64,000 bases of DNA from Candidatus Nomurabacteria bacterium (lineage in GTDB: Bacteria > Patescibacteriota > Minisyncoccia > Phycocordibacterales > UBA9973): assembly GCA_963842815.1 (NCBI GenBank), contig CAWJHU010000001.1, forward strand, positions 94,497-158,496, in the 5' to 3' direction. The notes beneath the pieces are model-generated. The model saw only the letters and a program-made list of their open reading frames with translations, made no database searches and was not told the origin of the DNA. The position numbers and the translations under genes are program-made. This document shows, in pieces, positions 9,423-24,678 of the stretch. Position 1 is the stretch's first letter, and the number at the start of each line of letters is the position of its first letter.

Positions 9423-10183
9423 ATATTCAACAAGGAGACATTTATAAATTAGGTGAACATATTATTGCTTGTGGTGACTCACTGGATGCTTCTTTCGTTA
9501 ACCAAGTGATTGGCGACAAAAAGATCAGAGCCATAATTTCTGATCCACCTTACGGAGTTGCATATGTCGAAGGCAAGAAGGCCTTCAATAAATTAGGGGT
9601 GGATAGCGACAAAGTGATCATTGGGGATCAGCTTCAATCTGACGGAGAATACGCCAAATTCAATCAAGTATGGCTTGAAGCAGTAAAACCATACCTTGAG
9701 TCATATAACGCCTGCTATATCTTTAACGGCGACATGATGTATCCTGCCCTACGGGTTGGAATGCAAGAAGCCGGATTCTACTATAGCCAAATGATTATAT
9801 GGCTTAAAAACCATGTGGTGCTGGGACGGAAAGATTATCTGCCAATGTTTGAACTCATCGCTTACGGCTGGCATGGTAGACATAAAATGGAAAGGTCTAA
9901 AGCCAAGAGTGTGATTTTTTATCCCAAACCAAATGCCTCAAAATTACACCCTACTCAAAAACCTGTCGGACTACTCCGTAAACTGATACCAAACTCCACA
10001 AAAATAAACGAATACATTTATGATCCGTTTCTTGGAAGTGGAAGTACTGCTGTTGCCTGTGAGCATCTCGGTCGAAGATGTATTGGCATCGACCTTGATC
10101 CAGAATATGTTATAACGGCAATCACTCGTCTGGAAAAACTAACTGGTAAAACAGCAGAAAAAGTATGGTCGGTGAAAGCATAG
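9419..10183 (+). CDS. DNA methyltransferase (N6A/N4C, PF01555-type), translationally coupled to the upstream fusion gene
   Basis: IISDPPYGV (DPPY) and HPTQKPVGLLRKLI motifs; ATG at 9419 overlaps the upstream TGA (ATGA). The tracked ORF starts earlier at 9368. Confidence 0.8.
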   Translation: MNIQQGDIYKLGEHIIACGDSLDASFVNQVIGDKKIRAIISDPPYGVAYVEGKKAFNKLGVDSDKVIIGDQLQSDGEYAKFNQVWLEAVKPYLESYNACYIFNGDMMYPALRVGMQEAGFYYSQMIIWLKNHVVLGRKDYLPMFELIAYGWHGRHKMERSKAKSVIFYPKPNASKLHPTQKPVGLLRKLIPNSTKINEYIYDPFLGSGSTAVACEHLGRRCIGIDLDPEYVITAITRLEKLTGKTAEKVWSVKA

Positions 10184-10766: not shown

Positions 10767-11528
10767 ATGAGAAAATTTGTTAATCTATTTGAAAAAGGAA
10801 ATTTAACCCCCAGAGAACGGTATCTGATGTTGATGCAAAATAACTTCACTAAAGTAATCACTGGTGAAGAATCTTTAACTGTAGCCGATAAAGGTGCTTT
10901 AGAAAGCTGGAAACCAAAAAATAATAGAGAGGTGGATGAATGGAATAAATATGGCGAGGGTGATCTACTGATTAGTAATGCTGGTTTGGAAGTAGAAATT
11001 TTATATTTACAAGCCAAGGCAGAATATTTCAGGAAATTTTCTCTGGATATGCAATTAAGTTTCTATCCTTCTAATCAAAGAATTGAAAATATTTTAGAAG
11101 AATTAGAGATAATAAAAGTTGGAAATGTTAAAGATGACATATTAATACTAAAAACAATTTTCAAATCAATGCAGTTTATCAAGAAAATTGAAGAAAATGG
11201 CGAAACTATTTTGGACTTTACTGAGACAGCAAAAATCATTTTCAAAGAAACACGAGAAAACCTTATTGATTACTATTCTAAATTATTGGCTTTTCAAAAA
11301 ATATTTAAAAGGTTGTCAATAGTTTACGAAGTGGATATGCTTTATTTTATTAATGATCACATAAAAGATGTTACCCGTTTTATAGAAGGCAACAACGACG
11401 CCTTAAACAGGGCAGTTTTGAAGATGAAAGATAATTTACTTATAGACAAAGACAGTATCTTGCCAGATACCGAAACATTGGAAATCTGGACTAAAAAATT
11501 TACTGAGATTTTGGGCGATGAATTTTAG
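10767..11528 (+). CDS. Hypothetical protein
   Basis: 253-aa ORF; its start abuts the stop of the upstream ORF. Confidence 0.4.
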   Translation: MRKFVNLFEKGNLTPRERYLMLMQNNFTKVITGEESLTVADKGALESWKPKNNREVDEWNKYGEGDLLISNAGLEVEILYLQAKAEYFRKFSLDMQLSFYPSNQRIENILEELEIIKVGNVKDDILILKTIFKSMQFIKKIEENGETILDFTETAKIIFKETRENLIDYYSKLLAFQKIFKRLSIVYEVDMLYFINDHIKDVTRFIEGNNDALNRAVLKMKDNLLIDKDSILPDTETLEIWTKKFTEILGDEF

Positions 11529-11539
11529 GGAAAATACTT

Positions 11540-12073
11540 TTATTTAGCGTGAGAAATAAAGTTTATGTTTGCTCCCCAAAAGTGCTTGAAGTCGATACTG
11601 CATTTACTCATTTGCGGATTGTTTGTCATCATAACTTTAAATGGAGACGTCTGCCCGGGCATAATCGGATTATAGTCGATTAAAGAATCCGAAGAATTTA
11701 CAAATTCTCCGGTTTTAGTATATGCAGTGCCCAATGCTTCTACATCCTTTAATGATTGACCGCTGATATTTTTCACTTGCCCAACGATTTGGAAATAATC
11801 ATATTCTTCGTAACACCTATAACTAAGCAATTCTAGCTGTGGTTCATTATTAGCGACGGAGTTTGTTGTCGATTGAGAACTACTAGAACCCACTGGTACG
11901 TTGCTTGAACTACTATTGATCACAATAATGAGAAATACAAAAATAATAATCCCGGCCGTTATCTTTTTACCTTTTGTCCAAACATACATTTTCCCCTGGC
12001 AATGAGGACACCTAGTTGCCATTAAATCTACTTCCTTTTTACAATGCTTGCACAGTTTATTTTTTTCTTCCAT
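11540..12073 (-). CDS. Zinc-ribbon membrane protein (N-terminal CxxC...CxxC, one TM helix, extracytoplasmic C-terminus)
   Basis: CKHCKKEVDLMATRCPHCQGKMY, then the hydrophobic segment IIIFVFLIIVI, then a Ser-rich linker. Confidence 0.4.
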   Translation of the reverse strand: MEEKNKLCKHCKKEVDLMATRCPHCQGKMYVWTKGKKITAGIIIFVFLIIVINSSSSNVPVGSSSSQSTTNSVANNEPQLELLSYRCYEEYDYFQIVGQVKNISGQSLKDVEALGTAYTKTGEFVNSSDSLIDYNPIMPGQTSPFKVMMTNNPQMSKCSIDFKHFWGANINFISHAK

Positions 12074-12189: not shown

Positions 12190-13143
12190 CTATTTGTTGT
12201 ATTCATAGCTTTGTTTAATAAGCCCCATAACTTTATCTATGTCCTCTTTTCTTTCAAGTTTTACCTCGTAGTCGCCATTACCCCAATGGCCGATTACTTT
12301 AGGTTTTGTTAGATTACGGGCCATGCCAGCTGGATTATCTAGTTCTCCACTTGGCACATTTAAGAAAATTTTCAGCAAATCGTGCAGAATAACTATGTCG
12401 CAAAAATTAGTGGTTAATTTATAGGCAATATATTTTGATTTAGGTTCTTCGATGATTGATTCATCTAAAGCTGATATCCTCTCTTTAAGGACTGCAAATA
12501 TTTCCTTAACATTAATGTTGGCAGATTTAAGGTGATCATCAATGGTATATTGTATTTTTTCCTTGAATACACTTTTTTGTTTTTCTCCTTTTCCAAAAAT
12601 TTCAGAGGTGGAAATTTTCACTTTGCGTTGGTTCTCTGATTCCACCAGCAGGATATTATTCTCATAGAGCCGGTAATGAAGAAGCTCAATATTCATAGGC
12701 AGTAAATCAGCTGTATCTAAATCGAATTTGTTATAACTTTCCGCAACACAGATTACTCGAGGTGACGCCCAATCAATCTCTATATTAATATTCGCTTTAT
12801 GTACTAATGCCTCAAAAGCATCTTTGTGATCCAACAGCCAACGTAAATATGATAGTCCTTGATTGATGACGTTCTCGTTCTGAGATAATTTATATTCAAT
12901 GATAACCGGTGAGCCGTTGTTATCAATTCCCACCGTATCCATTCTCCCACCGAAGCTAGTTGAATATTCAGTTGCTAAAAATGTAATGTTCAATATCTCG
13001 TCAAGATTTTTCTCGAAGATTTTTTGAATATCCTTTTCAAGACCAACTTTAACGATTGGGATCTTTTTTGCTTTTTCGTTTTGGGTAAAAAATAACGCCA
13101 TGTGTTTATTCCTGGCGTGAGGTTTAAACACTAAACCCCGCAC
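12190..13143 (-). CDS. NucS/DUF91-like PD-(D/E)xK nuclease-domain protein (paralog of 13916..15007)
   Basis: GRMDTVGIDNNGSPVIIEYK...NVINQGLSYLRW shows a D...ExK motif followed by a QxxxY motif, as in NucS/RecB-family nucleases. Confidence 0.5.
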   Translation of the reverse strand: MRGLVFKPHARNKHMALFFTQNEKAKKIPIVKVGLEKDIQKIFEKNLDEILNITFLATEYSTSFGGRMDTVGIDNNGSPVIIEYKLSQNENVINQGLSYLRWLLDHKDAFEALVHKANINIEIDWASPRVICVAESYNKFDLDTADLLPMNIELLHYRLYENNILLVESENQRKVKISTSEIFGKGEKQKSVFKEKIQYTIDDHLKSANINVKEIFAVLKERISALDESIIEEPKSKYIAYKLTTNFCDIVILHDLLKIFLNVPSGELDNPAGMARNLTKPKVIGHWGNGDYEVKLERKEDIDKVMGLIKQSYEYNK

Positions 13144-13273
13144 CAGCTAGGTCTTGCGACCCCATACCAGTTTCCCGATACGGCCCTTGGAAGAGTTGCT
13201 GAACGCGGGGTTCAGTATCTTCCAAGGGTCTTTGGATCATGCCGTAAACTACTTCACGGTTTAGATCACTCAT
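13121..13273 (-). CDS. Possible small ORF (50 aa) upstream of 12190..13143
   Basis: Minus-strand ATG at 13271-13273 gives MSDLNREVVYGMIQRPLEDTEPRVQQLFQGPYRETGMGSQDLAGAGFSV; it overlaps a GC-rich nested hairpin (13184-13228). It may be non-coding. Confidence 0.2.
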
Positions 13274-13375: not shown

Positions 13376-13897
13376 ATGATTCTTCCACTAGAACTAACAC
13401 CCTCAGACATAATGACTGTACCTTTACCATCTGGAAATACAGTGGACTTGCCTGTTTGTCACCCTACTTTTTCAAGCTGGTCAGAAAAATTGCCAAACTT
13501 TGATTTTGGAAAGAAACCTATCGTGAATTATAAAGGAAAAGGTGTTTTTGCTGAACTTGCTATTTTAGGATTACTTATTGACTCGGGATGGAATGGCATT
13601 TGGGTGGAAACATATGGAGGTATTCACTTTCTAAAAGATATGCCGACTAGTTGGAAATTATCACAACATAATATATCTATAACATTAGACAAAGAAACTT
13701 TACTTAAAAATATTTGGAAAACCGGAAAAACCACAGCTTGTTTTGATGTTTTCGCGTGGAAAGATAATGACATTCTTTTTTGTGAAGGAAAGCATAAAGG
13801 TAAAGATAGATTAACTAAAGCACAAACTAAATTTATTGAAGGAGCGTTGGCTTGTGGAGTACCAATACAATCTTTAGTGATTGTTGAATGGAACTAA
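13376..13897 (+). CDS. VRR-NUC-like PD-(D/E)xK nuclease (putative)
   Basis: C-terminal FDVFAWKDNDILFCEGKHKGKDRLTKAQTKFIEGALACGVPIQSLVIVEW fits the VRR-NUC pattern (D...ExK, Lys, conserved Gln, then G-hydrophobic). Confidence 0.45.
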   Translation: MILPLELTPSDIMTVPLPSGNTVDLPVCHPTFSSWSEKLPNFDFGKKPIVNYKGKGVFAELAILGLLIDSGWNGIWVETYGGIHFLKDMPTSWKLSQHNISITLDKETLLKNIWKTGKTTACFDVFAWKDNDILFCEGKHKGKDRLTKAQTKFIEGALACGVPIQSLVIVEWN

Positions 13898-13915: not shown

Positions 13916-15007
13916 TTATTCATTTAATATATTAATTTCTGGTTCTAAAATTTCGATAACGGTTTTCATTTTATTCACTGCCCAATTTTTTAATTCATCA
14001 GTCATCTTTCCTTCATTTTTTTCTATATACATCCTAGACCAAGTTTTCCCCCAATCTTTTTCAACAATAACTTTTTCATTTGTTGCTTGTTCAATTTTTT
14101 CTTTCAATTTTTCAACTCTCCTAAGGGCTGTTTCATTAAATTGCTTGTTTCCTTTTTCAAAATGAACCTCAACACCAAAACTATTTCGTGGCCTACCGTG
14201 GAATCCCCACTCAAAATGTACTCCACTCACTACTGTTGGTATTTGGCAGTATGATTTTGTGGTTGGATTTGCATTATAGCTCGGAAGAACTGCGTTTAGT
14301 TTATTTTTAAGTTCACTGTAAAAATTAAGGTATTCTTCTTGTGAAAGAGTTTTAACATGTTCCATATTTTCTTTCTTTTCAGATTGAATTATATAGTCTT
14401 TTGCCTCTGGAAGTGGAATTAAAATTGTTGATTCAAAACCGATTGTATCATTATCTAATTCATAAGGAGTTAATTTTATACAAGTTATATCGATTCCAAA
14501 ATTTCTTAACCATAAAACAGATGCCGTAACTTCAGTTCTATATTCTTTTGATACAATAATTATTCTAGGACGATCTGACAGTTCTTCAAACTCATTATTT
14601 TCTATAAAATCAACAATTTGTTTTTTAGCTTCTTCTTCGTTAGTTATTTTCCCTTTTTTAGAAAGATAATTTTGATATTCTCTTACAACTTCACTTAAAG
14701 TTAAAGTGGAGCAATATGCTGCATATTGTATTGCCTGTAATTCAACATTTTTTCCACTATCATCACGTTTTAACTCAACCACAACCAAATTGCCGTCCTT
14801 ATCTAGTGCCAATAAGTCTAATCTTTCATTTGTCTTATCAAATTTATTATACTCAGTACTAATTATTAGCAACTCTTCACCTAAAATATCTGGATAATTT
14901 TCAACCCATTTCTCTATATCTTGTCTTTCAAGAATATTATGAGTTTTTAAGTCTGTTTCATTGTAGGTAGATATTTTTTTTGAGTTTTTATTATATGTAA
15001 ATAACAT
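13916..15007 (-). CDS. NucS/DUF91-like PD-(D/E)xK nuclease-domain protein (paralog of 12190..13143)
   Basis: ERLDLLALDKDGNLVVVELKRDDSGKNVELQAIQYAAY shows D...ELK plus QxxxY, the classic DUF91/RecB-like nuclease core. Confidence 0.5.
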   Translation of the reverse strand: MLFTYNKNSKKISTYNETDLKTHNILERQDIEKWVENYPDILGEELLIISTEYNKFDKTNERLDLLALDKDGNLVVVELKRDDSGKNVELQAIQYAAYCSTLTLSEVVREYQNYLSKKGKITNEEEAKKQIVDFIENNEFEELSDRPRIIIVSKEYRTEVTASVLWLRNFGIDITCIKLTPYELDNDTIGFESTILIPLPEAKDYIIQSEKKENMEHVKTLSQEEYLNFYSELKNKLNAVLPSYNANPTTKSYCQIPTVVSGVHFEWGFHGRPRNSFGVEVHFEKGNKQFNETALRRVEKLKEKIEQATNEKVIVEKDWGKTWSRMYIEKNEGKMTDELKNWAVNKMKTVIEILEPEINILNE

Positions 15008-15024
15008 ATTTTTATTATATCACT

Positions 15025-15156
15025 TTATAATTCTTGCCAAACCTCTAATGCTTCATCTCCCTCAAGTCCTGTTTCATCTTTAAAATCCTGAAGTTCTTCG
15101 GCTTCTTCTAGACTCAAATCATTCTCCTTGGCTGTTTCAAATGTTTCTTCGTCCAT
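15025..15156 (-). CDS. Small, highly acidic protein (43 aa) between the DUF2726 gene and the NucS-like gene
   Basis: Minus-strand ORF MDEETFETAKENDLSLEEAEELQDFKDETGLEGDEALEVWQEL, about 40% Asp/Glu; too short for the provided ORF track. Confidence 0.35.
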   Translation of the reverse strand: MDEETFETAKENDLSLEEAEELQDFKDETGLEGDEALEVWQEL

Positions 15157-15162
15157 GTTTTT

Positions 15163-15675
15163 TTATTTTAATTTCTCTAAAACAAGACGCCTTATTTCTT
15201 CTTTATTAAAATTCCCATTATTCCCAAATCGTAAAAGTGGCAAACCAGCGTCACTTAAAATACGCTCAACTTCTGCATCTCGCATACTTCTATTCTCTTG
15301 TTCGTGTGTTCTATCATCTAATTCAATCGTAAGGAGTGGTTTAATATACGCTTTATCACAAATAACAAAATCAACTGATTTTTCGTCGATATGGCGAAAT
15401 GCGCCCTTCCAATTCTGTCCTACAACCTTATTATCTAAAATAGTTGGTAAATGTATTTGAGGGAAAACATAATATTGAATTCCTACTATATCAACAAGAA
15501 TATCAAAAAATTCATGCTCTGCTCGGCTCATCAAAAAATCTTTTCGCTTATAACGGTAAAAAGGTTTATTTTCTTTGCCCGAAAGTCCTTCAGGAATAAA
15601 TACCTTAAAAGCTATGACGACAACTATTACTAAAACTATAAAAATTGTTAACATTCCCATAAAATTATTTATCAC
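15163..15675 (-). CDS. DUF2726-domain protein (PD-(D/E)xK-like, restriction-associated) with an N-terminal TM helix
   Basis: SRAEHEFFDIL...VFPQIHLPTIL...DFVICDKAYIKPLLTIELDDRTHEQ...RDAEVERILSDAGLPLLRF matches the DUF2726 signature; its start overlaps the res stop by 11 nt. Confidence 0.6.
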   Translation of the reverse strand: MINNFMGMLTIFIVLVIVVVIAFKVFIPEGLSGKENKPFYRYKRKDFLMSRAEHEFFDILVDIVGIQYYVFPQIHLPTILDNKVVGQNWKGAFRHIDEKSVDFVICDKAYIKPLLTIELDDRTHEQENRSMRDAEVERILSDAGLPLLRFGNNGNFNKEEIRRLVLEKLK

Positions 15676-16444
15676 CGAATAAACTGATCAATTCTTTAAA
15701 GTCTTTTGCTTTGTATTTCTCCCAAACCTCTTGTTTAACATATAATGCTTTATATACCGCTCTACTCTGTCGAGCATTCACATCTTCACACCACAACTGA
15801 AGTCTTTCAAATTTAATTTTATCGTCCTCTTCTTCTCTACCTTTCGTTTCAATAATATAAATTGTTTTGTCATTAACTTTAACAAAGAAATCGGGGTAAT
15901 ATGTCGCAATTAATCCTTCAGCATTTTTATACTCAATTCTTAAAGCATTGGCTTCCTTATTGATAAAATTCTTTGCAAAAGAAATAACATCGTCACAACC
16001 CTCTAAAAATTCAGCAAAAACTAATTCAAAATTACTATCACCAGCAATCCTATTAAATACTGACTTCTTAGGTATCAAGAAGGATTTATCATTGACCACA
16101 AATGGTCTTGATTCACTAATCTTTATGTAATTTTTTATTTCTGTATCTCCCTTATCTTTAATAGTCAATTCATTAATAGCTTTCTTGAAAGATTCCTTAA
16201 TTGCCCTAGTGACTTCTATCTCTGATAAATTAGTTAATATATTTAGATCATTTAAATCTACTTCCTTCTCAAAAAGATAATGCTGTATAAATTCTTTTAC
16301 TTTCCCATATAAAACATCATAACAACCGAAAAGACGAAGGTCCCGCATAATTGCTTGCGTAAAGAATCCAACCACTCTTTGATAATCTACATTGATATTT
16401 CCATCGAGTTCCGTCTTGTGATGGAATTCTTCTCCCAACAACAT
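15665..16444 (-). CDS. res: Type III restriction enzyme Res, C-terminal endonuclease part, in a different frame from the helicase part
   Basis: YYPDFFVKVNDKTIYIIETKGREEEDDK is a PD...ExK endonuclease motif. Its frame opens just after a TAA around 16492 and overlaps the end of the helicase ORF. Confidence 0.6.
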   Translation of the reverse strand: MLLGEEFHHKTELDGNINVDYQRVVGFFTQAIMRDLRLFGCYDVLYGKVKEFIQHYLFEKEVDLNDLNILTNLSEIEVTRAIKESFKKAINELTIKDKGDTEIKNYIKISESRPFVVNDKSFLIPKKSVFNRIAGDSNFELVFAEFLEGCDDVISFAKNFINKEANALRIEYKNAEGLIATYYPDFFVKVNDKTIYIIETKGREEEDDKIKFERLQLWCEDVNARQSRAVYKALYVKQEVWEKYKAKDFKELISLFGDK

Positions 16445-18356
16445 CTTTAAAGATAATCTCTCTCTTTTCTTGTTCGCTGAATGTCTTTATTTTTACTTTT
16501 TTAATTTCAAATTTAGACACATCCAAGTCTGAAAGATTTTTATACTCTCTTTGAATTCTTGCTGACATTGCTGGTATCTCAATATCGAGTTTCTCAATAT
16601 CTTTTTTAGGATTATCTTTATCAACCTCAATAACCATCGGAGTAATTGGTTTTGCTCCAGTACCCATTAATCTCTTTTCAAGCAAAACTCCTTCACCCTT
16701 AATAGATTTAACAAAATCCATAAAAGCAGGTGTTCCTATAACACTTACATATTCTTCTACACTCTCATCGCCAAAATACATTCTTCTTAAACCTCTTCCA
16801 AGTGTTTGTTCTGGAAGAATCTTTGCATCAGATGTATATGGACGAAGTCCGACAATAGTCGTCACATTTTTTACATCCCAACCCTCTTTGAGCATCAAAA
16901 CAGAAACAATAACCTTAAAAGGACTTTCCCAACTATCTATTTCATTGGCTTGCTTTCTTAATATATCTAATTCTTCTTTACTCTTTCCAGTTACACTTTC
17001 TGAAATTTCACCGCTTTTATTAGTATGAATAGTTAAAACTGCATCTTTTAAATCAGAGAAACTACCTCTAATATATTCTGCCACATCATCACAATTCTTA
17101 GTATCGTCTGTCATGATAAAAAGAATAGATTTCTTTCCCGTTGGTTTTAGATATTCATATGTTTTTCTCCATTCTTCTACTCCTAAATTTATATAATCAC
17201 GATACTTCTCACTAAACAATGAGCTTTGATTCTCTTTTAATTTTCCACAACTTGCTTCGTCTGGCACAACAGGATTTTTAACAATTCTTTGATGTATGGC
17301 TTCAACTAAAGGATAGTCTGAAATTGTTTGCACAAAAATAGATCCATCATTCTTTTTTGGAGTAGCTGTCATATCTACTTGTAAAGCAAGTTTTGTGCCT
17401 TTACCTTTTAAACGATTGTGAATATCTTGGATAGACTTAAACCAAGCCATCTTTTCATCGTGAATATGGTGAGCTTCGTCGTTGATAATAATAAGCTCAT
17501 CAATATCACGAACAATCATTCCTAAATCAACTTTAGAATCATTTGTTTTTGCAACTGGTTTCTCTCCAAGAAAATACTCACTTGTATCTTCGTCTTCTGC
17601 ACTTGAAACAGAAACATCGCTTTCATAAACTCTGTGTATGTTTGTTAAAAAGATATTACCTGTATCTGAAACACTTTTTAATTCGTCCTGTAAGTGTAAT
17701 GTTATTTGAAAATCATCATTCCAATTTTGTCCTGCATAACCATTCTCTGGCAACACAGGATCATTATGGAATATTTTTAATCCTTCAAAATCATTCTTTA
17801 TTCTTTCGAAGACAATAACGTTGGGCGTTATCAAAAGAAAGTTTTTAGCCAACTTAGAATCTTCTTCATATTTCTTATGGAAATAGGCCCAAGCGATAAC
17901 TAAACTCATTACTTTTGTTTTACCTGCACCTGTTGCCATTTTAACCACAAAACGAAGCCAGTCTTCAGTAAACATATCTGCGCTTAATACTCCAGTAGAA
18001 TTGTATCTAAGTAAATCATATTTATCTTTTACCTTAGCAACTTCATAAAGCCAAATGATAGTTTCCATGGCTTCTCTTTGCGCAAAATAATATCGGAAAT
18101 TATAAAAAGAGCCATCTTTGTTATAGATAATATGTTCTTCTTTAAACCAGTAATTCAAAAGTGCCTTGGATGTATCACTAGCATCTTCGTATTTTTTATC
18201 TCTCCATTCTTTTACTTTCTTTCTAAGGTCAGCAACAAGAGGAGGAATAAGTTTATCAAATCCTTTTTCTCGCAGATCTTCGTCAGCAGGAAACCACCTA
18301 ATGCTAGGGTCTAAGATTGCGTATGGGTCTTTTGGAAAATTTTTATGCAGTGCCAT
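16317..18356 (-). CDS. res: Type III restriction enzyme Res, helicase (SF2) part
   Basis: VVKMATGAGKTKVM (Walker A) and IIINDEAHHI (DEAH box), with helicase C-terminal domain motifs; directly downstream of mod. Confidence 0.8.
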   Translation of the reverse strand: MALHKNFPKDPYAILDPSIRWFPADEDLREKGFDKLIPPLVADLRKKVKEWRDKKYEDASDTSKALLNYWFKEEHIIYNKDGSFYNFRYYFAQREAMETIIWLYEVAKVKDKYDLLRYNSTGVLSADMFTEDWLRFVVKMATGAGKTKVMSLVIAWAYFHKKYEEDSKLAKNFLLITPNVIVFERIKNDFEGLKIFHNDPVLPENGYAGQNWNDDFQITLHLQDELKSVSDTGNIFLTNIHRVYESDVSVSSAEDEDTSEYFLGEKPVAKTNDSKVDLGMIVRDIDELIIINDEAHHIHDEKMAWFKSIQDIHNRLKGKGTKLALQVDMTATPKKNDGSIFVQTISDYPLVEAIHQRIVKNPVVPDEASCGKLKENQSSLFSEKYRDYINLGVEEWRKTYEYLKPTGKKSILFIMTDDTKNCDDVAEYIRGSFSDLKDAVLTIHTNKSGEISESVTGKSKEELDILRKQANEIDSWESPFKVIVSVLMLKEGWDVKNVTTIVGLRPYTSDAKILPEQTLGRGLRRMYFGDESVEEYVSVIGTPAFMDFVKSIKGEGVLLEKRLMGTGAKPITPMVIEVDKDNPKKDIEKLDIEIPAMSARIQREYKNLSDLDVSKFEIKKVKIKTFSEQEKREIIFKDVVGRRIPSQDGTRWKYQCRLSKSGWILYASNYAGPSSFRLL

Positions 18357-18359
18357 ATA

Positions 18360-18992
18360 TTAGTATACTTTTTGGATAAGAGAAATAAATCTATCTAATT
18401 TTTCAATTAATTCATCAACTGATTCTTTTATTACAACATTTTTTGTATATGAAGCATTGGCACTATTCAGACTTTTAGGGTGAATTGTATTTCTTAAATG
18501 ATTTATATCATCAAGGTAAGTTTTCCAACTTTGATTTCTGAAAAAACCCGCTTTATTGAATATATCTAATAAATATCCCAATCCCGTATTTTTATTGCTT
18601 AGTTTTTCAGAAGCAATGACACTACATAAATCATTTTTCTTTTTTGCGTTTGTTCTGTGTTCAAACAAATCAAAAAGCAATCCTTCATATATGGAAGCAG
18701 ACAACTGACAAAGAACAAGTTTGTGTTGCCAACCAAAAGTAAGTCCTGGTTTTAGAAATTCATATACACTTCTATGATAATCTAAACACATTCTTAGTTC
18801 AGCGAGATTATTTCTTAATTCAAAATCTTTTACAAAAGAAAACATAGGACGATAATGACTACCTAAATTTTTACTTATTTTTCTACCATCAGATAATTTC
18901 ATTTTCCAATAGCAAAATCTATCTGGTAAAGATTGCAAATTATCGTGCACTGTCATAAAACAATCTTCGGTTGAATGTTCTACACTACTCAT
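18360..18992 (-). CDS. Hypothetical 210-aa protein inserted between mod and res
   Basis: Overlaps the mod stop by 4 nt and ends 4 nt before the res start; no recognisable domain. Confidence 0.45.
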   Translation of the reverse strand: MSSVEHSTEDCFMTVHDNLQSLPDRFCYWKMKLSDGRKISKNLGSHYRPMFSFVKDFELRNNLAELRMCLDYHRSVYEFLKPGLTFGWQHKLVLCQLSASIYEGLLFDLFEHRTNAKKKNDLCSVIASEKLSNKNTGLGYLLDIFNKAGFFRNQSWKTYLDDINHLRNTIHPKSLNSANASYTKNVVIKESVDELIEKLDRFISLIQKVY

Positions 18993-21112
18993 ATTTTCAC
19001 ATCAATTACTCTAGTAGTATCATTCCCGAAAATATCGACTACTTTTACAGCCACTTTATAAGTTCCCTTAGGTAATTCTTTTGGAGTAGAAACTAATTCA
19101 AGATTTCTTTTCTTCTTGGTTCTAAATTCTTGCCATTCATTGTCAAAAACATAATCGCCAGTCCAAACTTCTTTCTCTTTGCCATCCTCAATAACTTTTA
19201 CAATTTCTTGTCTACTAGAAAAATCATAATCAACTGCCCAATAATCAATCCAATCACTCCATTTTTTAGTCAAAGTTTCTCTTTCCACAAGTTCAGTTTT
19301 CTTATCTTTACTTATCTTTATTACTTGACCATTTTCAACAACAACCTTTGAGCTTCCAGCCTTCAATCCCTCCTCTATTTCTCCAGTATTGTCTTGATTA
19401 TAGAAAACAGAGAAATCTGTTAACTCAATAGAAAGCTCTTTGTTATTTCCTTTACCTTTGATAATTGGCTTTATTTCAATAAACGCAACATCGTAGAATT
19501 TTACTTGTCCTTTTTCTACAGCTCTTTTATCAAACACTTCTCTAGGAATTATTTTGAAGGCAATATCAATTCCTTCATCTTTATATTCCTGGAAATCCAA
19601 ACCCATTTCGTAATCAAAACCAAGCACATCAATTTTGGTAATGCTCTTTTCTTTGCACTCTTTAACTATATCTTTTACTAACTCATGAGAAACAGGAGTA
19701 TTTATTGGACCAACGGCAATCAACCGATCTCTTTTCTTCCCAACAATATTTACAAATGATTCTACTGGTTCAGCTTTATAGGCAGAAATAATTAATTTAA
19801 TAAATTCTCTTTCTTTTCTTTCAGCTTGTTTAGCTTTTTGTTCTGCCCTTAAATCATTATTTAATTCAAGAAAACTTTCTCTTTCATATTTACCAACATT
19901 TAGGATTTCAAAAGCTCTAAAATTCTTACCTTCTTTTTTAAGTTCTCTTTGAACTCCAATAAGTCTCTTCCTTGAGGTATGAGTAGCAAATTTACCTAAA
20001 TCAGATCCAATCCACTTTCTATTGAGTTTTTCAGCAACAGCCATAGTTGTTCCAGAACCACAGAAAAAATCAGCAATTAAATCACCTTCGTTTGAAGATG
20101 CATTTATAATTCTCTCTAATAATTTTTCAGTTTTTTGTGTTGGATAACCTAATCTTTCCTGAGAAGTAGAAATCTGTTGAAACGACATAATATCACTCCA
20201 AACATCCCCAATTGCTTTACCTTTAGCAAGAGTTTCATCTAAATATCTTTTTTCTCCACGACCACCAAAATATCTTCTACCATCTTCATCAATTTTATCA
20301 AATCTATCTATATATTCTTTTCTATGTTCAGTTGATAATTTATTAAAAATAAAAGAATCTTTATTTTTTGAATAAAAAAGAATAGTATCGTGACCCCTTA
20401 TCCAATTTCTTGCAATACTCTTGTATCCACTTAAAACACTTATATCCCAAATTATTTCTCTTTGGAAATTATCTGCCCCAAAAAGCTCATCTAAAACTAA
20501 GCGAATATGGCTATTTACCCTGTGGTCACAATGAACATAAATACTTCCATCTTCTGCAAGTAAATCATACATCAATCTTAACCGTTCATAAATCATGGAA
20601 ATAAAACTATTTGCTCCATTACCCCAAGTATCACGAAAAGCAACCTCTTCTATTACTGAAGGTTTTTTAGTAAAACTTTCCTCTTCCTCACCATCACCAA
20701 TTTTTATATCCATAGAAAAATCTGCCCCAACATCAAAAGGTGGATCAATGTAAACAAGTTTAAGTCCTCCTTGTGCTTCTATCTCTTTTCTAAGTGGTCC
20801 GTTTTTAAGAGAAGAAAGGATAAGCTTGTTATCGCCCCAAATAAGTTTATTAGTCCAGCCAGTTACTTGTCTTCCAGACATATCAAAAAGAGAATCCTGT
20901 AATCCAATTTTATCTTCTCCTCTAGGCTCATCAATTTGTTCAATAGTTTGAAAAGGTAAAACGGTAGTCGTTACGTCATTTGTTTTACCATTCCAAACAA
21001 GCTCTACTTCTCTGTCATCCTTGAATAGCAAAAACCGATATTTATCTGGTAATGACTTACCAGCTTCTAAGAATTTTACTATATCTCGTTTTTCATTGTC
21101 AGATAGTTGCAT
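18989..21112 (-). CDS. mod: Type III R-M Mod subunit (beta-class N6-adenine DNA methyltransferase) with a C-terminal extension of about 250 aa
   Basis: KLVYIDPPFDVGADFS (motif IV, DPPF), then GYPTQKTEKLLERII and FFCGSGTTMAVAEKLNRKWIGSD (motif I); the IV-to-I order marks the beta class. Confidence 0.8.
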   Translation of the reverse strand: MQLSDNEKRDIVKFLEAGKSLPDKYRFLLFKDDREVELVWNGKTNDVTTTVLPFQTIEQIDEPRGEDKIGLQDSLFDMSGRQVTGWTNKLIWGDNKLILSSLKNGPLRKEIEAQGGLKLVYIDPPFDVGADFSMDIKIGDGEEEESFTKKPSVIEEVAFRDTWGNGANSFISMIYERLRLMYDLLAEDGSIYVHCDHRVNSHIRLVLDELFGADNFQREIIWDISVLSGYKSIARNWIRGHDTILFYSKNKDSFIFNKLSTEHRKEYIDRFDKIDEDGRRYFGGRGEKRYLDETLAKGKAIGDVWSDIMSFQQISTSQERLGYPTQKTEKLLERIINASSNEGDLIADFFCGSGTTMAVAEKLNRKWIGSDLGKFATHTSRKRLIGVQRELKKEGKNFRAFEILNVGKYERESFLELNNDLRAEQKAKQAERKEREFIKLIISAYKAEPVESFVNIVGKKRDRLIAVGPINTPVSHELVKDIVKECKEKSITKIDVLGFDYEMGLDFQEYKDEGIDIAFKIIPREVFDKRAVEKGQVKFYDVAFIEIKPIIKGKGNNKELSIELTDFSVFYNQDNTGEIEEGLKAGSSKVVVENGQVIKISKDKKTELVERETLTKKWSDWIDYWAVDYDFSSRQEIVKVIEDGKEKEVWTGDYVFDNEWQEFRTKKKRNLELVSTPKELPKGTYKVAVKVVDIFGNDTTRVIDVKI

Positions 21113-21116
21113 ATAA

Positions 21117-21512
21117 TTATCTAGAACTTGGTGGAGATCTTTTTATAAACATTGGACGATAATTGGGGTCAATTTGTACACTTTTATTTTTACATAAAGG
21201 GCAATCAAAAAAGGCAGGATTTCCACACGGTTGCATTCTTATGGTCTTTTTATTATCATCCCAACAACTAGAACAAAGTGGACCATCTTTCTTGCCATCC
21301 TTAATAATCCAGTATGCATTATTCTCGTAAGCTAGGCTCTCTTTCGTTTCTAATTTTTCTTTTAAAACTCGATTTTCTGTATCTAGCTCAGAAATTTTAT
21401 TCTGCATTTCTAAGAGTTTTTCCTGTATACCCAAAATTTGCTCATATTGTGGGATTTTGTCTGCTTCTCTAAGAGTTCCTGCTATGGATTTTAGTTCGTC
21501 AAAAATTACCAT
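21117..21512 (-). CDS. Hypothetical coiled-coil protein with a C-terminal 4-Cys zinc ribbon; first gene of the mod operon
   Basis: LEMQNKISELDTENRVLKEKLE coiled coil, then CSSCWDD...CGNPAFFDCPLCKN; its stop lies 4 nt before the mod start. Confidence 0.4.
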   Translation of the reverse strand: MVIFDELKSIAGTLREADKIPQYEQILGIQEKLLEMQNKISELDTENRVLKEKLETKESLAYENNAYWIIKDGKKDGPLCSSCWDDNKKTIRMQPCGNPAFFDCPLCKNKSVQIDPNYRPMFIKRSPPSSR

Positions 21513-21636: not shown

Positions 21637-22956
21637 ATGAATACATCACAAATGCCAGTTGGAGCTATGGCGAGAGAAATACAAGCCCCAGTAAAGGTGA
21701 AATATTGCCTTTATGCTAGAAAATCTACGGAAAGTGAGGAGGCTCAAATACTTTCCATAGATAGCCAGATTAAAGAAATGTTACAGATGGCGGAACGCGA
21801 TCACCTTGAGGTAATAGAAATAAAAAAAGAATCACACTCGGCGAAGGAAGCCGGACAGCGGCCAGTTTTTAATGAAATTGTTGATGAGATCAAACAAAAG
21901 AAATTCAATGGAATCCTAACATGGAACGCAGATCGTATTTCCAGAAACGCTGGAGATCTTGGAAGAATTGTAGACTTGATGGACGCAGGAATATTACACG
22001 AGATACGTACCTTTGGGCAGAAATTTTCAAACAGTCCGAATGAGAAATTTCTGCTGATGATTTTAGGGTCACAAGCTAAATTAGAGAATGATAACAAAGT
22101 AGTAAATGTTAAAAGAGGACTCCGAGCAAGATGTGAAATGGGTCTCTGGCCATGCACTGCCCCGACTGGATATCTCAGCAGTAAAAACACCGACAAACGA
22201 TGTCATGTTGAAATTGACCCACATCGGGCGCCGATTATCAAAAAAATGTTTGAGAAAGTGGCATATGAAAAATGTAGCGGGCGAAGATTGCACGCATGGT
22301 TAAAAGATGAAATGAAATTTAAGACTAGGAACGGAAAAATTTTCAGCATCAGCAATATTTACATAACTCTCAGAAATACTTTCTACTACGGCAGTTTTGA
22401 ATATCCAAAGGGTGGCGGGCAATGGTACACCGGCAAGCATACGCCAATAATTTCTAAAGAATTATTTGATAAGGTACAAGAACAAATGATGGAGTACACA
22501 AGGAATAGTGAACACAAAGAATTTGCCTTTACTAAATTAATGACCTGCGGACTGTGTGGATCGGGCATAACGGCTGATGAGAAATTCAAAAAACAAAACA
22601 ATGGAAATGTGCATCGGTATGTTTACTACGGATGTTGCAGATTCCAGGACAAAAATTGTAAATCGGGTTACATGCGAGAAGAAGATTTGATTGAGCAACT
22701 TGCAGGACTGATGGATGAAATTGACCTTGATGAGATCGGGATGAAGCAGAAGATTAAAGACGAAATTGAGCGACATAAGAGATTCAATATAGGCATACTC
22801 GGACTAAAAGAAGCAACCGTCAAAGTTGCAGATGTTGATATACGAAATTATGCTAAACATGTTCTGCGAGGTGGTAGCCTGGAAGAGAAACGAGAATTGC
22901 TGACTTGTTTAAGAAGTAAAGTGGTTATGAATAATAAAGAAGTAAGAATTAGTTAA
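21637..22956 (+). CDS. Large serine recombinase (resolvase/invertase catalytic domain, recombinase domain and zinc ribbon)
   Basis: YCLYARKSTESEEAQILSIDSQ carries the catalytic Ser; also LTWNADRISRN and C-terminal CGLCGSGITADEKF...CCRFQDKNCKSGYMREEDLIEQ (zinc ribbon plus coiled coil). Confidence 0.85.
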   Translation: MNTSQMPVGAMAREIQAPVKVKYCLYARKSTESEEAQILSIDSQIKEMLQMAERDHLEVIEIKKESHSAKEAGQRPVFNEIVDEIKQKKFNGILTWNADRISRNAGDLGRIVDLMDAGILHEIRTFGQKFSNSPNEKFLLMILGSQAKLENDNKVVNVKRGLRARCEMGLWPCTAPTGYLSSKNTDKRCHVEIDPHRAPIIKKMFEKVAYEKCSGRRLHAWLKDEMKFKTRNGKIFSISNIYITLRNTFYYGSFEYPKGGGQWYTGKHTPIISKELFDKVQEQMMEYTRNSEHKEFAFTKLMTCGLCGSGITADEKFKKQNNGNVHRYVYYGCCRFQDKNCKSGYMREEDLIEQLAGLMDEIDLDEIGMKQKIKDEIERHKRFNIGILGLKEATVKVADVDIRNYAKHVLRGGSLEEKRELLTCLRSKVVMNNKEVRIS

Positions 22957-22972
22957 AAGTATCTGGGCTTTT

Positions 22973-24472
22973 TTGTCATTCCTGCTACAATGCGCTAATA
23001 ACCTGATGAAAATACAAGATGTAAAAATTGGAAGAAACGACCCTTGTCCATGCGGCGAACTTAAACCAGATGGAAAGCCAAAGAAGTATAAAAACTGTTG
23101 CTTAAATAAGGAAACGCCTAATAAAAAGAAAATGGTTAAAATGACGATTAGTAGAAGAGATTTCATATCTGGACCATATAAACAGTGCCCAAAATGCCTA
23201 AGGAAGAGCTCATTTGGGGTCTTTATACCAACCTCTGGTACACATAGCTATTCTAGAGAGTGTGTTGAGTGCGGACACAAACAAGGATACCCATTGCCGA
23301 AAATAAAAAAGAAGATTTTATATTTAGATCAATTTGTAATAAGCAATTTAATTAAATTTCTGGATAAAGATCACCCAAGTCACGAAAAAATTAAAAAGGA
23401 TCCTTTTTGGAAAGAATTATTTATAAAACTGGAAGCTGCTTCAAAATCACAAGCAATCGTTTGCCCGGACAGTTTTTATCACCGAGACGAATCGCTTGTC
23501 GGATCCACTGATTTTAAACTAATGAAAAGACTCTATGAGCATTTTTCAAGCGGAAAAACTCTTCATTCTGGTAACGAGATACAACGAATGCAAATTTATG
23601 AACACTTTGAGAAGTGGTTGCAGGGACAAAAGGCAAAATTTAATTCTGATCCAAAATATATATCTTCAGAAGATTTAGACACTTGGTCGGTAGGATTGCA
23701 TATAACAGTAAATATGCGCCCATTCCCCGGAGAAGTAGATAACCTTCGAGCTACAAACACTAGCACAAGAGAACAACTAAAGAATATATGGTCTATGTGG
23801 CAATCAGAAAAAGATTTCAAATTTACAAATAAAGTAAAAGAAGAAACTCTAGGATTGGGGAAAGGGCTGATAAGCGTAGCTCAAAAATTCCAGCAGAAAA
23901 GAGCTGACGCAATGAAAAAAATGGAATCTGGTGAAGACTATACTCTTGATCTTAACGATATTTTACCACCTGAATCTAACGGAATTCTTGATGATTTATT
24001 AAGACTTTCCAGAACGCATGGTATTTCTGAAGAAAATCTCTTAGGTACTATTATAAAATACTTCAACGATGTTGATGCCCTTTTAGAAATACCTAAAATC
24101 CGTATAAGCTCAGTGATGTTTGCGGGTTTAGCCAGAAGAGCCCAAATGGGTAAGAAAGAACCCCCAAAATCTTTTACGGATGTTGAGTTCATATCAAGCT
24201 ATTTACCATACTGTGATGCAATGTTTGTAGATATAGAATCCGCAACGATTTTAAAAGAACCTCCCAAAGAAATACCATTAAACTTAAAACTAAAAGAATT
24301 CCCAGCAAAAATATTTTCGCTAAATCAAAAGAAAGAATTTTTAGATTACCTTGACCAACTAGTTAAAAAAATTCCAGCGGAGCAAATGGAAATTTTGAAA
24401 GACGTAACCGGCGACAACCATGACAAGCCCTATTGGGATATTATTGAACACGAAAAGAGAGAAAGAGACTAA
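22973..24472 (+). CDS. SEC-C motif / zinc-ribbon protein (499 aa), function unknown
   Basis: GRNDPCPCGELKPDGKPKKYKNCC is a SEC-C metal-binding motif; a second CxxC...CxxC ribbon follows. The start may be the internal Met at 23006. Confidence 0.5.
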   Translation: MSFLLQCANNLMKIQDVKIGRNDPCPCGELKPDGKPKKYKNCCLNKETPNKKKMVKMTISRRDFISGPYKQCPKCLRKSSFGVFIPTSGTHSYSRECVECGHKQGYPLPKIKKKILYLDQFVISNLIKFLDKDHPSHEKIKKDPFWKELFIKLEAASKSQAIVCPDSFYHRDESLVGSTDFKLMKRLYEHFSSGKTLHSGNEIQRMQIYEHFEKWLQGQKAKFNSDPKYISSEDLDTWSVGLHITVNMRPFPGEVDNLRATNTSTREQLKNIWSMWQSEKDFKFTNKVKEETLGLGKGLISVAQKFQQKRADAMKKMESGEDYTLDLNDILPPESNGILDDLLRLSRTHGISEENLLGTIIKYFNDVDALLEIPKIRISSVMFAGLARRAQMGKKEPPKSFTDVEFISSYLPYCDAMFVDIESATILKEPPKEIPLNLKLKEFPAKIFSLNQKKEFLDYLDQLVKKIPAEQMEILKDVTGDNHDKPYWDIIEHEKRERD

Positions 24473-24501
24473 TTCTTTTTTTACAATTAAAAAACACTTT
24501 T

Positions 24502-24520
24502 AAGCCTCTCGGTCGGTCTC
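24502..24520. repeat. Right copy of the direct repeat (AAGCCTCTCGGTCGGTCTC), 10 nt from the tRNA-Arg 3' end; putative attR side
   Basis: See 7171-7190. Confidence 0.5.
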
Positions 24521-24529
24521 ACTAACGTG

Positions 24530-24601
24530 TGCCCCTGGTAGGAATCGAACCTACATCGACGGCTTAGAAGTCCGCAGTTCTATCCATTGAACTACAGGGG
24601 C
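24530..24601 (-). tRNA. tRNA-Arg (anticodon TCT); no encoded CCA
   Basis: Reverse complement GCCCCTGTAGTTCAATGGATAGAACTGCGGACTTCTAAGCCGTCGATGTAGGTTCGATTCCTACCAGGGGCA; anticodon loop CTTCTAA is identical to E. coli tRNA-Arg(UCU), with one A.G mismatch in the anticodon stem. Confidence 0.7.
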
Positions 24602-24602
24602 C

Positions 24603-24678
24603 TGGTGCGCGGTAAGGGACTCGAACCCCTGACCTTCCCGGTGTAAACGGGTTGCTCTACCAACTGAGCTAACCGCGC
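24603..24678 (-). tRNA. tRNA-Val (anticodon TAC), CCA encoded
   Basis: Reverse complement GCGCGGTTAGCTCAGTTGGTAGAGCAACCCGTTTACACCGGGAAGGTCAGGGGTTCGAGTCCCTTACCGCGCACCA gives a perfect cloverleaf. Confidence 0.85.

Follow-up and report, generated by a model that had tools for sequence, protein, structure and literature searches.

[quoted passage not shown] The X family is absent from Pfam, NCBIfam and PADLOC and recurs beside the methyltransferase genes of three R-M types. On balance, the locus is probably an ordinary Type III R-M operon (mod followed by res) lying on a serine-recombinase island beside tRNA genes, with X as HEPN-like cargo, and X is judged to be a probable defence effector nested in an R-M system, of the same kind as PrrC or HEC-08, not a part of a new composite system. 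Patescibacteria have tiny genomes and are mostly uncultured, and to our knowledge few of their defence systems have been characterised. Defence genes nested in R-M, BREX, DISARM and Hma operons already serve the discovery of immune systems, and the window locus (Table 1) extends this nested-defence pattern to the Type III operons of Patescibacteria.

Table 1. Genes of the operon and adjoining features, with positions in the window
Feature	Position	Strand	Evidence or setting
cc131, coiled-coil hairpin at the N-terminus, then a 4-Cys zinc-ribbon domain	21117..21512	-	first operon gene, before mod
mod, Type III DNA methyltransferase (beta-class N6/N4)	18989..21112	-	PADLOC MTase_III, Pfam N6_N4_Mtase
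X, 210 aa, HEPN-like fold, uncatalogued family	18360..18992	-	between mod and res
res, Type III restriction subunit (SF2 helicase and C-terminal PD-(D/E)xK nuclease)	15665..18356	-	ResIII, RE_endonuc/TnsA-like, BPTD_3080
DUF2726 protein, nuclease-like fold related to DUF559/Vsr, N-terminal hydrophobic helix	15163..15675	-	Pfam DUF2726 2.3e-27, DUF559 1e-4
43-aa acidic protein, 18 D/E and 2 K/R	15025..15156	-	real small gene, not operon-specific
NucS-like nuclease domain and DUF4268 (PADLOC PDC-S11)	13916..15007	-	PDC-S11 4.4e-95, DUF4268 1.9e-7, NucS_C 1.4e-3
Large serine recombinase	21637..22956	+	Pfam Resolvase, Recombinase, Zn_ribbon_recom; divergent from operon
tRNA-Arg and tRNA-Val	24529-24678		beside serine recombinase

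The preliminary description had placed seven genes in one tightly packed minus-strand operon, and an ORF check of the window finds all seven at those coordinates, co-directional and spaced by no more than 17 nt. The 4-nt gap between cc131 and mod, the 4-nt overlap (ATGA) of mod with X and the 11-nt overlap of res with the DUF2726 gene are as described there; the gap between X and res is 3 nt, not 4 nt. The DUF2726 gene is followed after 6 nt by the 43-aa gene, and this after 17 nt by the NucS-like gene. Scans with Pfam, PADLOC and NCBIfam uphold the domain calls for mod, res, the DUF2726 gene and the NucS-like gene. The tight spacing makes a single 7.6-kb transcript from all seven genes plausible. 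No terminator-like site lies between them, the sole site found being inside mod against 3.1 expected by chance, and a promoter scan gives sites no more numerous than in shuffled sequence. A search for simple repeats that might put mod or res under phase variation was negative. The GC content is 0.30–0.35 over 7–21 kb of the window, and the low-GC mobile island, about 17 kb long, has the serine recombinase and the tRNA genes at its right end; a search of the window for direct or inverted repeats marking island or cassette ends gave nothing convincing. A literature search on LOOT RNA returned nothing of use.

ATP-dependent cleavage by Type III R-M systems needs two inversely oriented unmethylated sites. 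Mod matches PADLOC MTase_III over residues 37–560 (2.5e-113) and Pfam N6_N4_Mtase (1e-43), is 57–80% identical to the Mod proteins of 68 related loci and, with its DPPF and FCGSG motifs present, appears to be intact. Res had been described as one ORF but consists of two overlapping ORFs in different frames, 16317–18356 (679 aa) and 15665–16444 (259 aa). It has a ResIII domain (4.3e-19) and a C-terminal RE_endonuc/TnsA-like domain, and NCBIfam BPTD_3080 is matched over 69–399 by the first ORF and over 763–947 by the second, at 223 bits against an equivalog cut-off of 800. The helicase ORF is separated from the nuclease ORF by one extra T in GTTGTTGGG, at about 16438–16441, which produces a +1 frameshift. 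In a DNA alignment with the intact relatives L024 (97% amino-acid identity, 896 aa) and L025, this T is the sole indel in the res gene of the window; res is uninterrupted in relatives that are 93–97% identical and also in L004 (897 aa). The frameshift may stem from the assembly or reflect a genuine loss of function, and since res is frameshifted in the assembly, restriction at the window locus may be inactive.

The mod–res junction is hypervariable in related operons. Of 68 relatives, 25 have mod and res side by side, with a gap of 5–12 nt, and the other 43 carry cargo in 39 arrangements; at the window locus the 633-nt gene X intervenes. The cargo types of the relatives include NYN, Fic, DUF3800, Old-like, PIN and GmrSD proteins, and the cargo genes match known embedded defence candidates, with hits to PDC-M04A (1e-61), PDC-S13 (4e-133), SoFic (1e-37) and Old (7e-24) as well as to PDC-S05, NYN, PIN_12, GmrSD_N and SLFN AlbA_2. 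The junction in this lineage probably serves as a cargo slot in which different genomes keep different defence-type genes, and it could be mined systematically. Some cassettes end in a conserved DnaA-box-like element, and the AAGTCAAAGTTATCCACA element is a possible marker of cassette boundaries.

The preliminary description had raised the possibility of a HEPN or Abi-like fold for X, and the fold is HEPN-like, with a four-helix up-down bundle. In an alignment of 42 sequences with a mean column identity of 20%, E103, R167 and H171 are invariant and N168 is nearly so, and the three invariant residues are also kept in two remote cargo homologues, L065 and L090. The canonical catalytic motif of HEPN proteins, which act as metal-independent endoribonucleases, is Rx4-6H. 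The X motif, R167-N-T-I-H171 (RNxxH), is Rx3H in all 42 aligned members and both remote homologues, so that its spacing is one residue short of the canonical range, whereas its R[N]..H character and its position fit HEPN. Scans of Pfam, NCBIfam and PADLOC give no match for X, cc131 or the 43-aa protein. Profile searches do not link X to described HEPN families, the best hits being DUF4145 (E 0.013, in 2 of 42 members) and RiboL-PSP (HEPN_RiboL-PSP, 0.077); hhalign of the X profile with the Ymh HEPN protein adjoining X in L022 does not align the motifs, and Foldseek against the PDB finds nothing significant (best E 1.5). Searches of PDB sequences, run with X by itself and with the 42-sequence profile, bring up only a weak hit to the NRG1 coiled-coil domain (E 0.0048) and to SecA helical regions, a resemblance judged to be generic to helical bundles.

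The distribution of X indicates that it is cargo and not a Type III component. The neighbourhood check recovers the mod-X-res order in four separate lineages (the window, L004-7/L021, L009/10 and L016/17). X lies in Type III operons in the window, L004-7, L009 and L016, in Type I operons in L011, L020 and L022 and in Type IIG operons in L008 and L014, and it stands beside a Type II Tsp45I gene in L001. It is embedded in Type III, I or IIG operons in 10 of 12 distinct contexts, its start usually overlaps the methyltransferase stop by 4 nt (six contexts), and its subclades follow the R-M type. L018 and L023 carry X without a recognisable R-M system. X accompanies only 1 of 80 res genes that are 70–97% identical to that of the window. 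These observations support the view that X is a genuine conserved gene and, because it occurs in operons of three types, beside a Type II gene and in so few res relatives, not a known Type III subunit. A specificity subunit and a controller protein were also considered, and both were rejected because X has no TRD or HTH similarity and is spread across R-M types.

From these features we infer that X may be a latent endoribonuclease forming a second abortive-infection layer. X would be co-produced with the methyltransferase through 4-nt translational coupling, would remain silent in healthy cells and would cut host or phage RNA once infection passes or disables restriction. E103, R167 and H171 are the predicted catalytic residues, and their active site would probably span a dimer, as it does in other HEPN RNases. 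The trigger may be autonomous sensing, which has a fair claim though one short of even, in which case embedding would serve only co-transfer and co-expression; more tentatively, it could be a PrrC-style release upon inhibition of the partner R-M complex. X has no visible antitoxin or sensor domain, which counts against a silent free RNase. The points counted against the proposal are the Rx3H spacing, the lack of a HEPN profile link and of a significant Foldseek match, the presence of X at the two loci without R-M, and the great divergence among Mod, HsdM and the Type IIG methyltransferases, which disfavours one physical interaction shared by X with all of them. If X is an RNase triggered by restriction failure, it would amount to a minimal guard of the PrrC kind that does without an ATPase domain, and such a guard would offer a tractable model for the coupling of R-M systems and abortive infection.

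A more far-reaching version of this proposal holds that the mod–res junction of Type III systems in Patescibacteria is an integron-like slot exchanging defence cassettes and that X is a new clade of HEPN-like RNases, with a short Rx3H motif, held latent by binding the methyltransferases of three R-M types and freed on their inhibition. This version is unlikely. If it were true, the slot, occupied in 63% of the operons examined, would be a rich, unmined source of new defence genes.

X might instead be a HEPN-like regulator of the MtlR/YggD sort, without catalytic activity, that tunes R-M expression or activity, for instance through a C-protein-like delay of restriction following transfer. This is improbable: an invariant E...RNxxH in a family of such low mean identity is typical of an active site, X lacks a DNA-binding domain and occurs at loci without R-M, and in sister loci the slot is taken by genes that are clearly effectors (NYN, PIN, Fic and Old). 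It is still more doubtful that X is a selfish addiction toxin or mobile-element passenger, stabilising the island or riding along with no role in phage defence. The serine recombinase of the window is 60–62% identical to those adjoining X in L009 and L014, X lies next to Rep and recombinase genes in L018, and the family is small and patchy, the closer alignment A1 finding only 5 loci among GTDB species genomes, all in keeping with such a passenger. However, X has no cognate antitoxin next to it, searches of IMG/VR viral contigs, GenBank phages and PLSDB plasmids did not find it, it is coupled directly to the methyltransferase gene in the same way whatever the R-M type, and defence candidates make up the other occupants of the slot.

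The seven genes had also been described as a composite or novel defence module. That mod-X-res recurs and that X is no known Type III subunit both stand, but the seven genes are not one co-evolving system. It is very improbable that they form one integrated system that obligately joins Mod and Res with X, cc131, DUF2726 and the acidic peptide: although the five-gene array cc-mod-X-res-DUF2726 recurs in L004-7/L021 (identities of 61, 73, 48, 85–70 and 31%) and every junction is at most 17 nt, this reading is largely refuted by the distribution of the components, since among close res relatives X occurs in 1 of 80, a cc131 homologue in 3 of 49 and a DUF2726 homologue after res in 3 of 59 evaluable loci (only L026, L051 and L057), a large minority of mod–res pairs are directly adjacent, the parts assort independently (cc131 with other cargo in L039 and L047; DUF2726 without X in L051 and L057), X also accompanies Type I and IIG systems and a Type II gene, and the acidic gene occurs in unrelated contexts.

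The genes for cc131 (zinc ribbon) and the DUF2726 protein (nuclease-like, membrane-tethered) are occasional accessories, one at either end of the operon and neither of them obligatory. Neither these two proteins nor the 43-aa protein has a PADLOC match, and only neighbouring genes match PADLOC models (PDC-S11 and PDC-S18). The 43-aa gene is found in Patescibacteria as 114 clusters with 70–95% identity; it is chromosomal and widespread, with 9, 14 and 94 substitutions at codon positions 1, 2 and 3 and with flanking DNA unrelated between loci. Elsewhere it stands before a GIY-YIG gene or after a PDDEXK_1 gene. The suggestion that it encodes an Ocr-like anti-restriction protein is not borne out: it has no family match, its contexts are unrelated and not specific to R-M or phage, and nothing connects it with Ocr-like anti-restriction. 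The PDC-S11 gene is a separate single-gene defence candidate, and it and the 43-aa gene are independent neighbours of the operon. The PDC models derive from a guilt-by-embedding study (10.1101/2024.01.29.577857).

Among known systems, canonical Type III R-M (EcoP15I/EcoP1I) and the BPTD_3080 family share with the window the mod-then-res order, a beta-class Mod and a Res made of an SF2 helicase and a C-terminal PD-(D/E)xK nuclease; the window operon differs in the cargo gene between mod and res and in the frameshift of res in the assembly. PrrC is the worked example among no fewer than 16 HEPN clades with links to R-M operons (PMC3710099). PrrC, of the EcoprrI Type Ic operon, and RloC share with X the nesting of a HEPN-type effector gene in an R-M operon, and PrrC is likewise proposed to act as a back-up RNA-targeting layer once restriction is neutralised (PMC3710099). 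Unlike PrrC, X is short and has no ABC-ATPase regulatory domain, nor any other ATPase domain or motif, shows no sequence similarity to PrrC and has the Rx3H motif; its gene also comes directly after that of the methyltransferase, in operons of Types III, I and IIG.

HEC-08 and the PDC candidates, like X, are single genes embedded in modification-based defence systems. HEC-08 is an embedded HEPN protein validated as a defence gene; it consists of a DUF3644 HEPN domain, whose match to SO_3166 it shares with X, and zinc ribbons, and its motif histidine is required for defence (10.1101/2024.01.29.577857). The systems analysed in the embedding study (Payne et al. 2024) were Hma, BREX, DISARM and Type I R-M, with Type III outside its scope (10.1101/2024.01.29.577857). 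X matches none of the HEC or PDC models of PADLOC-DB v2, whereas sister loci of the window operon hold PDC-M04A, PDC-S13, PDC-S05 and SoFic in the same slot. Compared with the HepT/MNT-HEPN toxins (SO_3166, PDB 5YEP; 8XDJ; 7AE2), X has no adjacent MNT antitoxin gene at any locus examined, its neighbours in the window being mod and res; it has about 55 extra N-terminal residues and a two-helix insertion, its motif spacing is one residue shorter, and the sequence identity is 10–16%.

Seven genes, all in the same direction on the minus strand, occupy 13916-21512, as the preliminary description had proposed, and from cc131, the Cys-rich coiled-coil protein gene 5' of mod, to the NucS-like gene they are separated by a gap of 4 nt, an overlap of 4 nt, a gap of 3 nt, an overlap of 11 nt and gaps of 6 and 17 nt (internal res split excluded). 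The close spacing fits the proposal of one operon, and because the sole terminator-like site sits inside mod (3.1 expected by chance), a single transcript across the seven genes is plausible, as a prediction. The earlier assignments of mod, DUF2726 and a NucS-like nuclease are upheld by the matches tabulated here. The res gene likewise encodes a ResIII helicase and a C-terminal restriction-endonuclease-like domain, but not as the one ORF described: the N-terminal part of NCBIfam BPTD_3080 is matched by one ORF and the C-terminal part by another in a different frame. Aligned with res of two relatives in which it is intact, L024 (97% amino acid identity) and L025, the window's res shows a single indel, an additional T in GTTGTTGGG at about 16438. 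This sequence comes from one assembly only, and the frameshift may be genuine or an assembly error. An ATG exactly at the shift site (aagATGttgttggga, 16444, minus strand) opens the downstream nuclease-domain ORF, which might theoretically yield a separate 259-aa nuclease fragment of res; nothing resembling a Shine-Dalgarno sequence is seen before it.

Features of the array and of the surrounding island
Feature	Position	Strand	Match or property
ParB_N-N6_N4 methyltransferase fusion (464 aa), overlapping a second N6_N4 methyltransferase (271 aa)	8028-10183	+	
253-aa ORF and 177-aa zinc-ribbon protein (predicted membrane segment)	10767-12073		no family match
PDC-S18 gene	12190-13143	-	PADLOC 2.6e-93; NucS-like N-terminus, DUF5655
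LOOT RNA	13149-13267	-	Rfam RF03000, 84.3 bits, E 3.8e-15, full-length match
173-aa ORF, convergent with PDC-S11	13376-13897	+	no family match
NucS-like gene	13916-15007	-	PADLOC candidate PDC-S11, 4e-95
43-aa acidic ORF	15025-15156	-	18 D/E
DUF2726 gene	15163-15675	-	DUF2726 2.3e-27; hydrophobic N-terminus
res	16317-18356 and 15665-16444	-	two ORFs, different frames
X	18360-18992	-	between mod and res
mod	18989-21112	-	Type III methyltransferase; PADLOC MTase_III 2.5e-113
cc131	21117-21512	-	
Large serine recombinase	21637-22956		

The HMM searches suggested for X, cc131 and the 43-aa ORF gave no match in Pfam, NCBIfam or PADLOC. The family of X, the 210-aa protein, is small: 1.84 billion proteins contain 55 representatives at 50% identity, and the 27 close homologues mostly carry Patescibacteria or Saccharibacteria labels. 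Viral contigs, phages and plasmids lack X. Across 42 sequences with a mean column identity of 20%, Glu-103, Arg-167 and His-171 are invariant and Asn-168 almost so, and two remote homologues found by a family HMM search keep these residues. The resulting RNxxH (Rx3H) motif is one residue short of the canonical Rx4-6H. No sequence profile connects X with described HEPN families (best DUF4145, E 0.013), and Foldseek returned no significant match, the top one being a HEPN toxin. The comparison list for X contained TTHA0636, MtlR and YggD, and YutE, AF0298, HI0074 and TT1696 in its upper part, and AbiA, Csm6, RnlA, Las1 and HepS in its lower part. X quite probably has a HEPN fold, from which we infer that it may be a catalytic RNase; that it is instead a non-catalytic regulator is unlikely.

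Twelve distinct neighbourhoods of X were read, and the mod-X-res triplet recurs beyond the window (L004-7/L021, L009/10), with a mod-DUF6864-orf-X-res variant in L016/17. In Type I systems the orders are hsdM-X-hsdS-NYN-hsdR (L011-13), hsdR-hsdM-X-hsdS (L020) and hsdR-hsdM-X-Ymh (L022). X follows the RM gene of a Type IIG system (L008), lies 5' of a split MmeI-like methyltransferase in a Type IIG-like one (L014) and adjoins a Type II Tsp45I gene (L001-3); L018 is without a recognisable R-M system, as is L023, where a Schlafen-type helicase adjoins X. In six contexts the start of X and the stop of the methyltransferase gene share 4 nt, and X subclades track R-M type.

The best-supported reading is that a standard Type III backbone carries X as an embedded HEPN-type RNA-targeting effector, which would be co-expressed with the methyltransferase and would act as a back-up or abortive-infection layer. 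This role is suggested by the precedent of PrrC/EcoprrI, by the at least 16 HEPN clades tied to R-M operons (PMC3710099) and by the validation of the embedded HEPN protein HEC-08 in the guilt-by-embedding study (10.1101/2024.01.29.577857). X may be physically restrained by the R-M complex, as its 4-nt coupling to the methyltransferase and the tracking of R-M type suggest, or it may sense infection by itself, which is favoured by how varied its partner methyltransferases are and by the two loci that lack R-M. A selfish addiction toxin is improbable, slightly more so than a regulator, and both are less likely than the embedded effector.

A metagenome scan with the helicase part of res yielded more than 584 relatives, of which 80 loci at 70-97% identity were kept, and 68 of these show both gene ends at the mod-res junction. 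The two genes are 5-12 nt apart in 25 of the 68 and 599-3580 nt apart (median 1109) in the other 43, where nearly all junction contents are co-directional ORFs, in 39 arrangements and about 45 protein clusters. Homology between loci breaks off precisely at the stop codon of mod and the ATG of res, and cargo genes begin either across that stop codon or no more than about 10 nt from it. The cargo comprises NYN with KTSC (11 loci), Schlafen AlbA_2/HATPase_c_4, DUF3800 (PDC-M04A, 1e-61), Bro-N (PDC-S13, 4e-133), Fic (SoFic, 1e-37), an Old-like ATPase, PDC-S05, PIN_12 and GmrSD_N, and is, judged by these matches, the known repertoire of embedded defence genes. Of the 80 loci, one has X itself and two others have remote X-like proteins, while a cc131 homologue precedes mod in 3/49 and DUF2726 follows res in 3/59. 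The components thus sort independently, and the window's array represents one of many combinations rather than the composite seven-gene module first proposed; an obligate composite system is very improbable, well behind the embedded effector.

A DnaA-box-like 9-mer, TTATCCACA (context AAGTCAAAGTTATCCACA), recurs just before res, where cargo cassettes of different kinds (NYN, DUF3800) have their 3' ends, in L025, L027-L029, L032, L036/37, L049, L069, L080 and L088. It has 23 matches in 748 kb, where about 5.7 would be expected, and 12 of the 23 precede a res ATG by 21-116 nt; it may be a cassette boundary or regulatory element; the operon in the window lacks it. Another, shorter Type III-like operon (L112/L113, 7001-12125; methyltransferase 546 aa, ResIII 741 aa) holds an unannotated 285-aa gene between methyltransferase and helicase, so embedding there is not confined to one Type III family.

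cc131 comprises a coiled-coil hairpin and then a 4-Cys zinc ribbon. A homologue opens the L112/L113 operon, overlapping the methyltransferase start by 8 nt; another lies between trmD and rpoB. Across Patescibacteria, the 43-aa ORF falls into 114 clusters (70-95% identity), with 9/14/94 substitutions at codon positions 1/2/3 and unrelated flanking DNA, a pattern indicating a true gene under strong purifying selection and among the most conserved of the region. It is always a self-contained ORF beside varied small nuclease genes, DUF2726/NucS-like in the window and elsewhere (L104-L111) before a GIY-YIG or after a PDDEXK_1 gene, and therefore does not belong to the Type III module as had been supposed. 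Its product could be a putative nuclease inhibitor or DNA mimic.

The array lies in a low-GC island at about 7-24.5 kb, whose right edge carries the serine recombinase and two tRNA genes. The stretch 21637-24678, with the recombinase, a 499-aa protein without a Pfam match, tRNA-Arg(tct) and tRNA-Val(tac), is probably the integration end, and no att repeats marking the island ends were found in the window. The window's serine recombinase shares 60-62% identity with those adjoining the X-bearing L009 and L014, and L009 has a similar ParB-methyltransferase alongside (28% identity). The PDC-S18 gene is two genes left of PDC-S11, beyond the convergent ORF, and thus the island stacks several nuclease-type candidates. 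The LOOT RNA lies directly 5' of the PDC-S18 gene, which suggests a structured leader or sRNA tied to this candidate.

The concept of defence-gene embedding is already known, and the backbone, PDC-S11 and PDC-S18 are already catalogued. The guilt-by-embedding study covered Hma, BREX, DISARM and Type I only (10.1101/2024.01.29.577857); new here are a HEPN-like family that is uncatalogued and has an Rx3H motif, evidence of embedded cargo in Type III operons, and a mod-res slot that is often occupied, with diverse contents, in this Patescibacteria lineage.
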